IMG/VR virus record: IMGVR_UViG_2778261226_000007 | Source of the DNA: a virus | Lineage: Duplodnaviria > Heunggongvirae > Uroviricota > Caudoviricetes | DNA length: 31,860 nt | Direction: 5' to 3' (one strand) | In this document: piece by piece, positions 17,910-24,156 of the stretch | Position numbering within the stretch: the first letter of the stretch is position 1 | How the letters are laid out: each line of letters opens with the position of its first letter | Translations under genes and position numbers: made by a program | Notes under the pieces: model-generated | What the model saw: the letters and a program-made list of their open reading frames with translations, nothing else | Database searches by the model: none | Told to the model about the DNA's origin: nothing

Positions 17910-17962
17910 AGGATGATCCTTTTTCTATGTGAATCATCACCACTGCTGACGCCAATCAGTAT

Positions 17963-18039
17963 GGTGGTGAACTGTGCAGGGTTGGCGTAACCGGGAAAAA
18001 GGAACCGGCGCGGATCGCTCCGCCCCCACACAGCCCACC
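17963..18039 (-). ncRNA. c4-like antisense RNA core, module C (77 nt)
   Basis: Closing stem GGTGG/CCACC plus CTGTG/CACAG. GNRA hairpin GCGGA-GCGA-TCCGC. A CCGG/CCGG hairpin carries b' (CCTTTTTC, 17995-18002) in its loop. a' is ACGCCAA (17982-17988). Targets: a2 TTGGCGT 17949-17955; b2 GAAAAAGGA 17918-17925 covering the SD of the ATG at 17909. Upstream copies: a1 18111-18117, b1 18096-18103. Confidence 0.7.
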
Positions 18040-18067
18040 ATTGAGATGTGACAGTGCAAACGACAAT

Positions 18068-18088
18068 AAAAAAGACGCTGGCGCGTCT
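18068..18088 (-). terminator. Hairpin plus T6 between b1 and the c4-like core (tR'-like position)
   Basis: Minus strand: AGACGC, loop GCCA, GCGTCT, followed by TTTTT. Confidence 0.6.
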
Positions 18089-18148
18089 GTTGTCGCCTTT
18101 TTCATCCGGGACGCCAATCCCGACGCCAGATTTTGCTGGCGCGTGAGG

Positions 18149-18178
18149 AATATAGCCCCGGACAATGTGTCTGGTCAA
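18149..18178 (-). promoter_or_regulatory. Sigma70 promoter immediately downstream of Q (candidate late promoter PR')
   Basis: Minus strand: TTGACC, 18 nt, TATATT, beginning 5 nt after the Q stop codon. Confidence 0.6.
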
Positions 18179-18182
18179 GCTC

Positions 18183-18578
18183 CTACATGATTCGTTCTAC
18201 GTATCTGTCCATCTCCAGTCGGATATCAAGCATCATCAACATGCCATCAATAACCCCTTCCGCTTTCTGCAGGCGCTTGCCAATACAGGTATCCGAACAC
18301 CCATGCTTTCGTGCCAACCCCATAAAAGTCATTCCACCTACGTAATAATCCACCAACAAATCGTGCAAATCCTGATTTTTCTTGTTCAACCGGGCCATAC
18401 AGCCACAAATTATCATTGCATCATCATCAGAACACTGAGGGCGTGATTTCACTTTCGGCGGGATTAATCCTTTAAAACCAGCAGCGATTGACGCCCATGA
18501 CACATCTTCGTGATTGTTCGCAGCCCATGATCCCCACCGCTCCATAACCTGCTGAATATCACGCACCATCGTTATCAC
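18183..18578 (-). CDS. Q: Late-gene antiterminator Q
   Basis: 131 aa. ...RWGSWAANN...IICGCMARL...[35 protein letters not shown] fits my memory of the antitermination Q family. Position is after RusA and before the lysis genes. Confidence 0.75.
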
Positions 18579-18933
18579 CTGTAATTTCGTAAATCTTCAC
18601 GCCCAACCGCCCACCAGGAACAGGCAGTCCGCGCACAATATTGATTTCATCAAACTGCTCGTCGTCTATAAGTAGTCCGGCATGCGTCAGCGCATCCAGT
18701 GGTGCTTTCAGAATATTGTCCAGGTCACGACGGCGCTTATCCGGCGGCTCTGCAATAATTTTTATTGCCAGCCTTCCGGACAGATTTAATTTCAGTCGCT
18801 GCTGGCGAACAATAAGCGCCACATCCCGGCGATAACGCTCCCCTGCTTTTGATACAAAATATGTGCTGCCACGACGACGCCAGTAGGTGTTCACCGTCGG
18901 TGGGTAAGGTAAAACACACTCTAAGCGCATCAA
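18559..18933 (-). CDS. rusA: Holliday junction resolvase RusA
   Basis: [15 protein letters not shown]...[30 protein letters not shown] closely parallels E. coli RusA. Confidence 0.9.
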
Positions 18934-19187
18934 CGCAGTACCCCCTGCACCAATTTTTCAAATTTTCCAACTTTTGTTTCCAGCTCTGCCACACAATCCA
19001 CCAGCTCATCCACCGCTTTTTGTGCGCGGTGTTTTGCCTGCATCAGTTCTCTGAGCGCGGGTACCATATCCCGACGAATGGCATCTTTTGTTACGCCTGT
19101 CTTTTCCAGTTGTTCCGCCTGTCGTAACATTTCCTGTGCCTGTTTACGTAATTGTTCAGGCGTAAAAGTCATGGTCTGGTTGTTCAA
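18930..19187 (-). CDS. Hypothetical coiled-coil protein
   Basis: 85-aa ORF with overlaps to its neighbours. No family recognised. Confidence 0.5.
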   Translation of the reverse strand: MNNQTMTFTPEQLRKQAQEMLRQAEQLEKTGVTKDAIRRDMVPALRELMQAKHRAQKAVDELVDCVAELETKVGKFEKLVQGVLR

Positions 19188-20575
19188 AAGAAACGCTCCA
19201 TCTTACTGCTGTCGGTTCGCTTATTGCTGTATCTGCGCGGCTGGGGCTGCTGCATTGGGGTGGAAAGAATCTGTGCGCTTTCCTGGTCTACGGGCAGAAA
19301 ATGTCCGTTATAAAAACGCCGGTAAATCGTCCCCAGAGAACCGTTACGTTGTTTCGTGATATTGATTTCTGCAATGCCTCTGGCCTGCGTATCCGGGTTG
19401 TACACTTCATCCCTGTAAAGCATCAGAATGATGTCTGCATCCGCCTCTATTTCTCCGGAATTTTTCAGGTCTGAGTTCATAGGTCGTTTATTGGGTCTGG
19501 ACTCAACTCCACGGGAAAGTTGGCTCAGCGCAACCACCGGTAATCCGCCGGATTTTGCCAGGCCTTTAAGCCCTTTTGATATTTCCCCCACGGCAAGGTC
19601 ATGACGTCCTATGGTACGGGTTTTTATCAGCCCGAGATAATCAACCACCACCAGCGCCGTTTCCGGGTGTTTAATCAGATGGTGTTTCGTTGTTGCGCAT
19701 ATTTCATCAATGGTCAGGTTCGCCTGGTCCACCATCCAGATATTGCGTCCGGTCATCAGCTCCACCCCCTTAATGAAACGCGCCCAGTCTTCGTCACCAA
19801 AGTGAGAGACAGATTTCAGGCGCGATACAGGCATTCCTCCGGCAGCAGACACCATGCGTTCACCGATCTGAATGTTCGCCATTTCCATTGTGAACAGAAG
19901 AACACCATGCCCCTGCTCAGTCACCTTGTCGATGATATCCAGCGCCAGTTCGGTTTTGCCCATTGACGGACGAGCCGCAATAAATACCAGATCGCCGGGC
20001 TCCATGCCGCCTGTTTTTGCGTCCAGTTCATCAATACCGGTCATCAACGTTCTGGATTTTTCCAGTCCCTGATTCCGGCATTCAACACGGTCAACCACCT
20101 CCGGAAGCACATCATCAATATGTACCGGCTGAATAATGCCCTTTTCCGTCGACAATGAAGCCATCATGTTCTGCGCATCCTTCAGGACATCTTCAGCTGC
20201 TTCACAGGTATGCGCATCACGTAATTTCTGCAGCGCCTCATTCAGTGTTTTTTCTGCATCACGCAATGCAGCATTGCGCCGCAACGCTGCAACATAGTGC
20301 TCCAGTGAAGACTTCACCCAGGTTTTACGCCCGGTATCAGTAATCACCGGAGCAAGTTCCGGCATTTCATTACACAGCAGCACAGGATCAATCACACCTG
20401 AAACACGAGCCTGTCGGCAGATGCCTGTGTAGATATCCCTATACGCTCGTACAGAAAAAACGTCCGCTGGCAGTGTGGCCAGAATATCCATCACTTCATG
20501 ATCTGCCCCACGCAGAAAAAACGCGCCAATGACAGCGCCTTCCAGATCATCGTTACGCCATACTGGAGTGGTCAT
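19184..20575 (-). CDS. dnaB: Replicative DNA helicase, DnaB family
   Basis: GIDELDAKTGGMEPGDLVFIAARPSMGKTELALD (Walker A) plus downstream DnaB motifs. Confidence 0.92.
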   Translation of the reverse strand: MTTPVWRNDDLEGAVIGAFFLRGADHEVMDILATLPADVFSVRAYRDIYTGICRQARVSGVIDPVLLCNEMPELAPVITDTGRKTWVKSSLEHYVAALRRNAALRDAEKTLNEALQKLRDAHTCEAAEDVLKDAQNMMASLSTEKGIIQPVHIDDVLPEVVDRVECRNQGLEKSRTLMTGIDELDAKTGGMEPGDLVFIAARPSMGKTELALDIIDKVTEQGHGVLLFTMEMANIQIGERMVSAAGGMPVSRLKSVSHFGDEDWARFIKGVELMTGRNIWMVDQANLTIDEICATTKHHLIKHPETALVVVDYLGLIKTRTIGRHDLAVGEISKGLKGLAKSGGLPVVALSQLSRGVESRPNKRPMNSDLKNSGEIEADADIILMLYRDEVYNPDTQARGIAEINITKQRNGSLGTIYRRFYNGHFLPVDQESAQILSTPMQQPQPRRYSNKRTDSSKMERFF

Positions 20576-23392: not shown

Positions 23393-23414
23393 AAAAAACC
23401 GCATGAGCGCGGTT
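23393..23414 (-). terminator. Hairpin plus T6 between b1 and the c4-like core, module B
   Basis: Minus strand: AACCGC, loop GCTCAT, GCGGTT, followed by TTTT. Confidence 0.6.
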
Positions 23415-23474
23415 GTGCTCTATATTGAATTTCGGGTTTCCACGCCCGGCCCCCGCTTTATAAGGTGCAGAGAC

Positions 23475-23503
23475 AGTGTAACGTCCCAAAAGTGCAGAAT
23501 CAA
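23475..23503 (-). promoter_or_regulatory. Sigma70 promoter of module B
   Basis: Minus strand: TTGATT, 17 nt, TACACT. The same hexamers and spacing appear in module A. Confidence 0.55.
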
Positions 23504-23515
23504 TATGTTGGCGAA

Positions 23516-23878
23516 TCATGGGCGCACCTCCCATTGATTACGACGGAAAACAGTGTGATTCAGGTTGGTTTCAGCCTCATGGAATGCTTCAATACAGCTC
23601 TCGTAGTACCGCATTGTGCGCAGACTTAACCCAAGCTGAAGCATCATCAGGCCATCAAGGGTGATGTAATAACCACGCAGGGAATCGCCATACACGTGGT
23701 AAGTACCCGGTATGAAATTACGGGAGAAGAATTCACGCGAGCAGTTCAGATACTCGATTTTGTCGACGATATTCTGGTGCATGCGCTTGAAGTGGCAGGC
23801 AACATGCAGGGAGAAAATAACAGCCTTACCGTTGACGATCTCAATTTTGAGGAATGGGGAAGTTGGGATCGTAGCCAT
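23516..23878 (-). CDS. Divergent Rha-like protein
   Basis: Start at MATIPTSPF with GGAGG 8 nt upstream. Aligns with the N-terminal ~110 aa of the Rha protein at 22671..23222 (INGKAV/INGRVV, HFKRMHQNIVDKIEYL / YFTKRHERVLDRIRNL). The upstream 106 codons are reinterpreted as module A RNA. Confidence 0.6.
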   Translation of the reverse strand: MATIPTSPFLKIEIVNGKAVIFSLHVACHFKRMHQNIVDKIEYLNCSREFFSRNFIPGTYHVYGDSLRGYYITLDGLMMLQLGLSLRTMRYYESCIEAFHEAETNLNHTVFRRNQWEVRP

Positions 23879-23935
23879 GATGGCAGCCTCCGTATGCAAT
23901 GGATAACTTCCACCACCGGAAACGCCAATTTCGCT

Positions 23936-24014
23936 GGTGGTGAACTGAGCAGGGTTGGCGTAACCGGCGCATACGGAAACCGGCGCACCTTTCGGTGCCC
24001 CCACCCAGCCCACC
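23936..24014 (-). ncRNA. c4-like antisense RNA core, module A (79 nt)
   Basis: Closing stem GGTGG/CCACC. GNRA hairpin GCACC-GAAA-GGTGC. A CCGG/CCGG hairpin carries b' (CCGTATGC, 23969-23976) in its loop. a' is ACGCCAA (23955-23961). Targets: a2 TTGGCGT 23922-23928; b2 GCATACGGA 23890-23897 overlapping SD GGAGG. Upstream copies: a1 24090-24096, b1 24073-24080. Confidence 0.7.
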
Positions 24015-24044
24015 ATAATTTGGGTATAGCTGAGTTGTAGCAAC

Positions 24045-24064
24045 AAAAAAGACGCTAACGCGCC
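24045..24064 (-). terminator. Weak hairpin plus T6 between b1 and the c4-like core, module A
   Basis: Minus strand: GGCGC, loop GTTA, GCGTC (one G-U pair), followed by T6. Confidence 0.4.
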
Positions 24065-24127
24065 AATTGTCGCCGTATGCAATTCCAGGACGCCAATCCC
24101 GGCACCCGCTTTATAAGGTGCTGGAAC

Positions 24128-24156
24128 AGTGTAACGTCCCGAAATTGCAGAATCAA
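24128..24156 (-). promoter_or_regulatory. Sigma70 promoter of module A
   Basis: Minus strand: TTGATT, 17 nt, TACACT. Confidence 0.55.

Follow-up and report, generated by a model that had tools for sequence, protein, structure and literature searches.

Three IsrK leader and C4 antisense RNA modules with different two-box addresses in a lambdoid prophage of the Escherichia coli type

Background

Can a single prophage carry several antisense RNA switches that are told apart by two short complementarity boxes, and would such switches act independently of each other? The question is raised by a lambdoid prophage of the Escherichia coli type in IMG/VR record IMGVR_UViG_2778261226_000007, a stretch of 31,860 nucleotides (nt) that was analysed over its whole length and is called the window below. 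This prophage holds three full switches, each made of an IsrK leader and a C4 antisense RNA, to which we refer as modules A, B and C. Both the mechanism class and all of its elements are already known from the c4 RNA of phages P1 and P7, the CI RNA of P4, N15 and the IsrK RNA of the Gifsy-1 prophage. What seems to be undescribed is the stacking of several differently keyed complete modules in one prophage, the size of the repertoire from which they come and the pair-wise uniqueness of their codes.

Results and discussion

Three complete modules on the minus strand

All three modules lie on the minus strand and each is complete, comprising a promoter or promoter-like element, an isrK-type leader with boxes a1 and b1 and an intrinsic terminator, a C4 RNA with the complementary boxes a' and b', boxes a2 and b2, and a gene. 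Within a module, boxes a and b each occur twice in sense and once as complement: a1 and b1 are inside the isrK element, a2 and b2 lie between the C4 and the start codon, b' occupies the loop of hairpin 2 of the C4 and a' the joint before its closing stem. Box coordinates below start from the 5' base on the minus strand; SD denotes the Shine-Dalgarno sequence.

24045..24121, minus strand: IsrK-type leader of module A (Rfam isrK RF01394, 61.2 bits)
24096-24090, minus strand: box a1 of module A, TTGGCGT, in a hairpin loop of the predicted fold
24080-24073, minus strand: box b1 of module A, GCATACGG
23933..24020, minus strand: C4-A antisense RNA (Rfam C4 RF01695, 80.7 bits; 95.6 bits with our own model R1)
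23976-23969, minus strand: box b' of C4-A, CCGTATGC, in the loop of hairpin 2
23961-23955, minus strand: box a' of C4-A, ACGCCAA, in the single-stranded joint
23879..23928, minus strand: target region of module A, just 5' of the ATG at 23878
23928-23922, minus strand: box a2 of module A, TTGGCGT
23898-23887, minus strand: box b2 (starting at 23897) with SD of module A, TGCATACGGAGG
23392..23468, minus strand: IsrK-type leader of module B (Rfam isrK, 57.7 bits)
23443-23437, minus strand: box a1 of module B, GTGGAAA
23428-23417, minus strand: box b1 of module B, TCAATATAGAGC, pairing via two G.U pairs
23280..23367, minus strand: C4-B antisense RNA (Rfam C4, 82.4 bits)
23323-23315, minus strand: box b' of C4-B, CTATGTTGA
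23308-23302, minus strand: box a' of C4-B, TTTCCAC
23223..23273, minus strand: target region of module B, just 5' of the ATG at 23222
23273-23267, minus strand: box a2 of module B, GTGGAAA
23242-23232, minus strand: box b2 of module B, TCAACATAG (starting at 23242), with SD, TCAACATAGGG
18068..18142, minus strand: IsrK-type leader of module C (Rfam isrK, 79.4 bits; c4-a1b1 RF03163, 52.2 bits)
18117-18111, minus strand: box a1 of module C, TTGGCGT
18103-18096, minus strand: box b1 of module C, GAAAAAGG
17960..18045, minus strand: C4-C antisense RNA, equivalent of STnc1160/orf45 (Rfam C4, 74.0 bits)
18002-17995, minus strand: box b' of C4-C, CCTTTTTC
17988-17982, minus strand: box a' of C4-C, ACGCCAA
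17910..17955, minus strand: target region of module C, just 5' of the ATG at 17909
17955-17949, minus strand: box a2 of module C, TTGGCGT
17925-17917, minus strand: box b2 with SD of module C, GAAAAAGGA

The three C4 matches all exceed the Rfam gathering threshold (45 bits) and run over model positions 1-87 of 87; the three isrK matches likewise exceed their threshold (50 bits) and align in full length, their architecture being that of two 5' hairpins and a spacer ahead of a terminator hairpin and its U tract, and in each module the isrK element lies 24-25 nt 5' of the C4. The family c4-a1b1 was matched by module C only. Box placement within the Rfam C4 and isrK elements is far beyond chance. 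Single boxes of 7-8 nt recur across the window at about the level expected by chance; composites of the form a-N-b are confined to their own module over the whole 31.9 kb, and mixed composites, joining box a of one module with box b of another, occur nowhere in the window.

A sequence-only reading of this DNA had recognised three immI/c4-type modules with three different (a,b) addresses, in which A and C share box a and differ in b while B differs in both, and had placed b2 over the SD. Every box was found where that reading had put it, so that the scheme of shared and different boxes stands, and in all three modules b2 enters the SD (GGAGG, AGGGG or AAGGA) 8-10 nt 5' of the ATG. Complementarity extends over 7 nt for a and 8-12 nt for b throughout; b1 of module B is one base off b2, its pairing being kept as G.U. 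The same reading had pictured antisense cores plus their targets, which is right as to the boxes but incomplete, since each module also has an IsrK-type a1b1 leader with a terminator.

RNA folds, covariation and predicted pairing

Taken alone, each C4 folds by minimum free energy to the canonical shape, a long closing stem with two hairpins; in the Rfam alignments the C4 stem is tRNA-like and ends in a 3' CCA or CCU tail. Covariation across 53 relatives of the C4 scaffold is pronounced: paired states fill 99.6% of cells, double-sided changes occur at 10 pairs, and none of 500 shuffles reached the observed covariation score. Beyond the scaffold, a1 (at about -75), b1 (about -60), a2 (+3) and b2 (+33) change in step with a' and b' at fixed offsets in 57 distinct related modules, and this four-site covariation is the strongest available evidence that the pairings are functional. 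Predictions with RNAduplex favour the cognate duplexes between core and a2b2 at the SD site (-36.6, -28.8 and -23.8 kcal/mol), and module B is clearly set apart by its predicted duplex energies with the others (-11 to -18).

A further element, GGTGGTG(A/G), was observed between a2 and b2 of each leader (about 23915-23905, 23258-23250 and 17940-17932, minus strand). It equals the 5' strand of the C4 closing stem and is complementary to the 3' strand of that stem, TCACCACC. Pairing of this element could compete with C4 folding or processing, and the alternative pairing is possibly the structure A/B switch described for Gifsy-1.

A repertoire of related modules

A first query, with the translated module as a protein against species-representative genomes, gave 2 loci and was replaced by a DNA pattern of the conserved scaffold together with our own covariance model. 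The pattern recovered at least 120 stretches in IMG/VR, and the model, built from 53 distinct cores, recovered 139 C4 RNAs in 124 sources, its E-values being rough. The survey favours those enterobacterial subfamily members that have the exact scaffold pattern, and since most loci are fragments, the numbers of modules are minimum values; the places that blastn gives per record merge neighbouring pieces and are unfit for counting modules.

Among the 139 cores, most of the variation falls in the b' loop and the a' joint, with at least 42 b' loops, at least 20 a' variants and at least 59 combinations. ACGCCAA, the a' of modules A and C, is that of about half of the sampled cores, and the a' of module B is the second commonest. 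Near-identical downstream genes carry many codes, and a given b' occurs in combination with different a', as does a given a' with different b'; based on this, the boxes behave as exchangeable specificity alleles. At least 13 distinct module sets with 2-4 modules were found among related prophages. One IMG/VR contig has three tandem cassettes with a 656-nt period (locus L037, 9708-11109). The E. coli strain E21845/O/A has the three-slot layout of the window with other codes, its slots A and B sharing b and differing in a. The prophage of E. coli UR21/11-869 (NZ_OU342919.1), 97.4% identical over 17400-24250, has an extra 653-nt cassette and hence four modules, with the codes (TTGGCGT, GCATACGG), (TTGGCGT, TCAACATAG), (GTGGAAA, TCAACATAG) and (TTGGCGT, GAAAAAGG): each box is common to another module and each pair is unique. 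Across 24 co-resident pairs from 13 module sets, none share both boxes, 6 share only a and 2 share only b. Six complete or nearly complete phages have one module (five phages) or two (one phage). Of 5426 complete E. coli genomes, 88 contain the A+B tandem at 80% coverage or more. PhiR47_1, an otherwise different phage, carries a single module that is 100% identical to module A.

Two side observations concern the unit of change. The code of the extra UR21/11-869 cassette (locus L130, 8384-9770) is a hybrid of box a of window modules A and C with box b of B. Module number changes in steps of about 653-656 base pairs (bp), corresponding to the leader, the C4 and a 120-amino-acid Rha gene.

The sequence-only reading had presented three such locks in one phage as not known to be described for immI-type systems. 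We likewise found no description of multi-copy C4/IsrK arrays in one phage in the searchable literature, which is weak evidence as most subscription-journal papers lie outside it. The arrangement is not peculiar to this phage and, being widespread in related prophages, is less exceptional than first thought.

Genome context, promoters and terminators

In the direction of transcription, the minus strand encodes a cro-like gene, an antirepressor (Ant) with ORF6N and KilAC domains, lar, module A with its Rha gene, module B with its Rha gene and a small gene, followed further downstream by O-like, DnaC-like and DnaB-like replication genes, rusA, Q, module C with its ORF6N gene, and then holins, endolysin and terminase. 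The A and B modules thus form a tandem that separates cro/ant/lar from the replication genes in the early right operon, and C directly follows Q.

25766-26455, plus strand: cI-type repressor gene
24193-24402, minus strand: Lar restriction-alleviation gene, following the ORF6N and KilAC/ANT gene
18183-18578, minus strand: Q antiterminator gene
24128..24156, minus strand: promoter-like element of module A, TTGATT-17-TACACT, ending 6 nt 5' of the isrK-type hairpin
23475..23503, minus strand: promoter-like element of module B, TTGATT-17-TACACT
18149..18178, minus strand: promoter of module C, TTGACC-18-TATATT, 10 of 12 consensus positions, 5 nt after the Q stop
24064-24045, minus strand: intrinsic leader terminator of module A (terminator scan)
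23414-23392, minus strand: intrinsic leader terminator of module B (terminator scan)
18088-18068, minus strand: intrinsic leader terminator of module C (terminator scan)

In nearly all related modules an element TTGnnn-17/18-TAnnnT stands 6-7 nt before the first leader hairpin, and the sequence upstream of the -35 is unrelated between them. From this conserved element with its diverging upstream flank we infer that each module is a transcription unit of its own, as has been shown for isrK in Gifsy-1 (PMC4825925). The promoter of module C is conserved with the Gifsy-1 isrK promoter in the alignment; no other consensus sigma-70 promoter stands between Q and terminase on the late strand, and six intrinsic terminators lie 3' of the module C promoter (17345, 16429, 16314, 15222, 14588 and 13779, minus strand). 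As the sole consensus promoter ahead of these six terminators, it is probably a Q-dependent late promoter. The IsrK-type RNA of module C may accordingly be the terminated leader of that promoter, analogous to the 6S RNA of lambda, a reading that appears compatible with a termination checkpoint like that of P4. Transcription from the early promoter would meet two leader terminators, those of A and B, before the replication genes and Q.

Three further observations were made in this region. Counted along the presumed transcript, the leader hairpin loops contain at about +7 to +14 a -10-like hexamer, TATAAA in A and B and CAAAAT in C. A strong intrinsic terminator (17324-17345, minus strand) directly follows gene C, where Gifsy-1 has the IsrJ small RNA after anrP. 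A fourth antirepressor-type gene (ORF6N and KilAC/ANT, 284 amino acids; 24402-25256, minus strand) lies just after cro, and the Rfam scan of the window found no C4 or isrK module before it.

The downstream genes and the open frame across modules A and B

23516..23878, minus strand: gene A, 120 amino acids, Rha N-terminal domain only (Pfam Phage_pRha 30.7 bits, cut-off 29.9; phrog_995, E 1.5e-57)
22671..23222, minus strand: gene B, 183 amino acids, Rha family regulator (Pfam Phage_pRha 105.5 bits; phrog_821, E 1.9e-104)
17421..17909, minus strand: gene C, 162 amino acids, ORF6N-domain antirepressor-like protein (Pfam ORF6N 77.2 bits; phrog_2379 'anti-repressor', E 2.6e-78)

The protein of gene C is 60% identical to AnrP of Gifsy-1 (STM2616), and an open reading frame (ORF) of 34 codons starts at the 5' AUG of C4-C (18041-17937, minus strand). 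In A and B the ORF equivalent to orf45 is fused in frame with the gene, the 5' AUG of the C4 being in frame. The resulting open frames span 23516-24196 and 22671-23534 (minus strand). Rha-type modules always have a b' loop of 12 nt; ORF6N/Q-type modules have loops of 8-11 nt and no open in-frame region.

These frames raise the alternative that the long ORFs through A and B (226 and 287 amino acids) encode real Ash-Rha fusion proteins, the RNA-family matches being secondary. The gene frame is indeed stop-free over leader and C4 (about 305 nt) in 60 of 75 distinct related modules with a 12-nt loop, a property that the other two frames show in 1 of 75 and 11 of 75, the translations match Pfam Phage_ASH, and PGAP annotations read 'ash family protein' and 'Rha family protein'. 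Yet no excess at third codon positions was found within the modules, unlike in the gene proper, and this absence disfavours the long-ORF reading, though it does not account for the open frame. The compensatory covariation of the C4 stem and of the boxes at four sites, the placement of SD and ATG exactly at b2, and the C-type modules, which are neither open nor in frame, speak against fusion proteins in the same sense. Moreover, Phage_ASH matches the old P4 'cI protein' ORF, which sits on top of the CI/C4 RNA. We therefore regard real fusion proteins as quite improbable; one possibility is that the Rha-type modules are under selection for ribosome transit through the RNA elements rather than for a peptide.

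The translation of each isrK+C4 module matches Phage_ASH (PF10554), over 23879-24175, 23223-23522 and 17903-18178 on the minus strand. In phage P4, PF10554 matches the old 'cI gene product' ORF (8168-8584) over the CI/C4 RNA (Rfam C4 at 8420-8507), and the immunity factor of P4 is described as a processed RNA whose precursor transcript is not translated (PMC4825925). We considered and rejected the use of PF10554 as the P4 epsilon antirepressor, as in PMC8628076: epsilon is in PF25738, and PF10554 overlies the CI/C4 RNA. Given this overlap and the matches of the module translations, PF10554, the 'ash family protein' and the long 'Rha family protein' appear to be largely translated RNA genes. 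Genes annotated as 'ash family protein', or as long 'Rha' genes with an Ash domain, should accordingly be viewed with caution as being in large part translated IsrK/C4 RNA genes.

Relationship to known systems

Judged by its sequence, module C is a direct orthologue of the Gifsy-1 antQ-isrK-orf45-anrP locus, with 83% column identity to the isrK locus including the promoter and box a. As described by Hershko-Shalev et al. 2016 (PMC4825925), the Gifsy-1 locus likewise lies directly after Q and has the same promoter, an IsrK leader with a terminator, a C4-type RNA with a small ORF at its 5' AUG, box a TTGGCGT and an AnrP-type protein; its box b is ATCACCG, as against GAAAAAGG in module C. Modules A and B share this RNA architecture but, unlike Gifsy-1, sit in the early operon before Rha-type genes, with the C4 AUG in frame with the gene, and Gifsy-1 has one module against three in the window prophage. 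In Gifsy-1, short IsrK supplied in trans binds the orf45 (C4) part of read-through transcripts and thereby increases anrP translation more than 100-fold; AnrP in turn induces the prophage (PMC4825925). A 2013 paper already pointed to IsrK/C4 pairs in lambdoid prophages of Salmonella (PMC3632133), and IsrK and STnc1160 are highly expressed in lysogens (PMC7067206).

In P1 and P7, according to PMC5320573 and PMC12197685, c4 represses ant by pairing at the ribosome-binding site of the icd-ant mRNA. The immI locus resembles the window modules in its RF01695 fold, with b' in the loop, a' in the joint, b2 at the ribosome-binding site and a1/b1 upstream, in that few box bases set specificity, and in that the target is an antirepressor pathway. 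Its targets are icd-ant1/ant2 (KilAC), under coupled translation and Rho-dependent polarity, whereas those of the window are Rha-type or ORF6N-type genes. The gene annotation of the window has no icd or KilAC Ant 3' of any module, so the modules are immI-like without being the P1 immI operon. P1 and P7 are plasmid prophages with one copy, as opposed to three differently keyed copies in a lambdoid chromosomal prophage, and the window leaders differ from immI in bearing terminators and an Rfam isrK element.

The seqA-CI-seqC region of P4 resembles the modules in having an isrK match at seqA and a C4 match at CI, and in an RNA that is processed from an operon leader and pairs with sites on both of its sides. 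It differs in acting by premature termination 5' of replication genes, in having no SD-covering b2 before an antirepressor-type gene, and in being single-copy. For N15 the likeness is by description: a small processed C4-type RNA controls the antA-C antirepressor operon of a lambdoid-related phage (Ravin et al. 1999, as cited in PMC3632133), reported there as a single locus under a dedicated repressor. The Group 1 C4-like small RNAs of Acinetobacter baumannii (Weiss et al. 2016, PMC5320573) are also many per genome, with a conserved scaffold and variable a'/b'; those copies are scattered in the chromosome, whereas the window copies lie within one prophage, each in cis with its own a1b1, a2b2 and gene.

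A proposed mechanism and its alternatives

By analogy with these systems we propose, as the probable though by no means assured explanation, that the modules are three self-contained IsrK-C4 riboregulatory cassettes of the P1/P7 c4, P4 CI and Gifsy-1 kind. Each cassette would have its own promoter, which is clear for C and suggested by conservation for A and B. Its transcript would begin with an IsrK-type leader, which presents a1 in a hairpin loop and has b1 immediately 5' of a Rho-independent terminator. Terminated transcripts would give a short a1/b1 RNA, and read-through transcripts would carry the C4 and then a2 and b2. As in P1, the C4 is probably released by RNase P, with a predicted 5' end at the G of AUGGUGGG. 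Its a'/b' surface would pair with a2/b2 and block translation initiation of the A, B and C genes. The a1/b1 leader could pair with the same surface as a competitor or activator, like IsrK of Gifsy-1, and may also serve as a termination checkpoint, like P4 seqA. Specificity would be carried by the two hypervariable boxes read as a pair, making the cassettes largely independent switches, and the arrangement in the window would be one sample out of a large natural stock of cassettes that are interchangeable and differ in their keys.

Several points weigh against this proposal. The a1b1 leader is on every transcript and the C4 only on read-through ones, so the stoichiometry may be problematic for a decoy. 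The promoter-like elements of A and B have 8 of 12 consensus positions, below the scan threshold. The authors of the Gifsy-1 study explained activation by structural rearrangement and orf45 translation, and in their hands over-expression of STnc1160, the C4 part, did not counteract IsrK and made growth arrest stronger (PMC4825925), so that a simple repressor role of a C-type C4 is tentative. All three genes had been called antirepressor-like in the sequence-only reading; this holds for C with its AnrP relative, but for the Rha-type A and B it is a guess at family level. The lack of identical codes among co-resident modules was considered and rejected as evidence of selection for orthogonality, since none of 24 pairs sharing both boxes compares with a random expectation of 0.014 per pair in so diverse a pool.

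A 4-nt change in a' alone is reported to abolish the cross-reaction between P1 and P7 (PMC5320573 and PMC12197685, citing Citron & Schuster 1990). Taken with the relative that has four modules, this speaks for a need of a match in both boxes; the address is thus probably the (a,b) pair. We consider it unlikely that the shared box a couples A and C and leaves two rather than three independent channels. C4-A and C4-C are identical over 14 nt in the a' region, and the C core is predicted by RNAduplex to bind the A target nearly as strongly as its own target (-23.5 and -23.8 kcal/mol, respectively), because the b pairing of C is weak and A/U-rich. However, pairing at a2 alone leaves the SD uncovered, a mismatch in one box suffices for heteroimmunity of P1 and P7 (PMC5320573), and the 97% identical prophage tolerates four modules, each box of which recurs in another of the four. 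The sequence-only reading had taken the shared box a as room for partial A-C cross-talk; the sharing is real, but a deliberate link is not upheld, ACGCCAA being the commonest a' and chance sharing therefore expected, with P(same a) = 0.185. By analogy, A-C cross-talk is probably weak and the two modules largely independent.

A wider departure from the translational model would give the modules a main role as checkpoints of transcription termination, like those of P4 and N15, with C4 pairing to a1/b1 (and a2/b2) enforcing leader termination or Rho-dependent polarity. A and B would then control how far early transcription proceeds to the replication genes and Q, C would have this function for the late operon, and the Rha and ORF6N genes would be secondary. 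An intrinsic terminator immediately 3' of b1 in each leader, the position of A and B between cro/ant/lar and O-DnaC-DnaB-Q, that of C at the only consensus promoter 5' of the lysis and terminase genes, 5 nt after Q and ahead of six more terminators, and the premature termination that CI RNA causes via seqA/seqC in P4 (PMC4825925, PMC3632133) all fit such a role. Set against this are b2, which is always over the gene SD at a fixed distance, the signature of P1-like translational control, the short stems of the terminators (5-7 bp), and the Gifsy-1 effect of 139-fold on translation against 8-fold on transcription (PMC4825925). We hold this alternative to be possible but doubtful, and the two mechanisms are compatible with each other. 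Lambdoid genomes are mosaics, so that the modules might instead be recombination leftovers of which a single one, C for instance, works, with the rest as silent passengers. The identity of module A to the single PhiR47_1 module, the range of 1 to 4 modules among relatives in steps of about 655 bp and the lack of a consensus-grade promoter in A and B are in line with this. Nevertheless, all three modules are complete, with a C4 of at least 74 bits, matched boxes at all four sites and an intact gene, and those of the relatives are likewise complete; decay would be expected to break box complementarity first. We accordingly give silent passengers little credence.

Conclusions

As a tentative generalisation, less secure than the cassette model itself, lambdoid prophages of enterobacteria might carry a second, RNA-based layer of immunity composed of interchangeable IsrK-C4 cassettes of about 655 bp, with a two-box (a and b) address and dozens of alleles. 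Two to four of these would be stacked as independent checkpoints, two or three of them early, before replication and Q, and one as a Q-dependent late leader, so that antirepressor-like proteins would be released separately; the open frame of the Rha type would be kept so that ribosome transit opens the lock. If the cassettes are truly orthogonal, they would amount to a natural library of mutually insulated antisense regulators with at least 59 codes on one scaffold, useful for synthetic biology and for understanding how two short boxes encode RNA-RNA specificity. Shiga toxin (Stx) phages are among the carriers of such modules. Were the cassettes orthogonal, induction and cross-induction in polylysogenic E. 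coli would be gated by several independent RNA switches besides the cI repressor.

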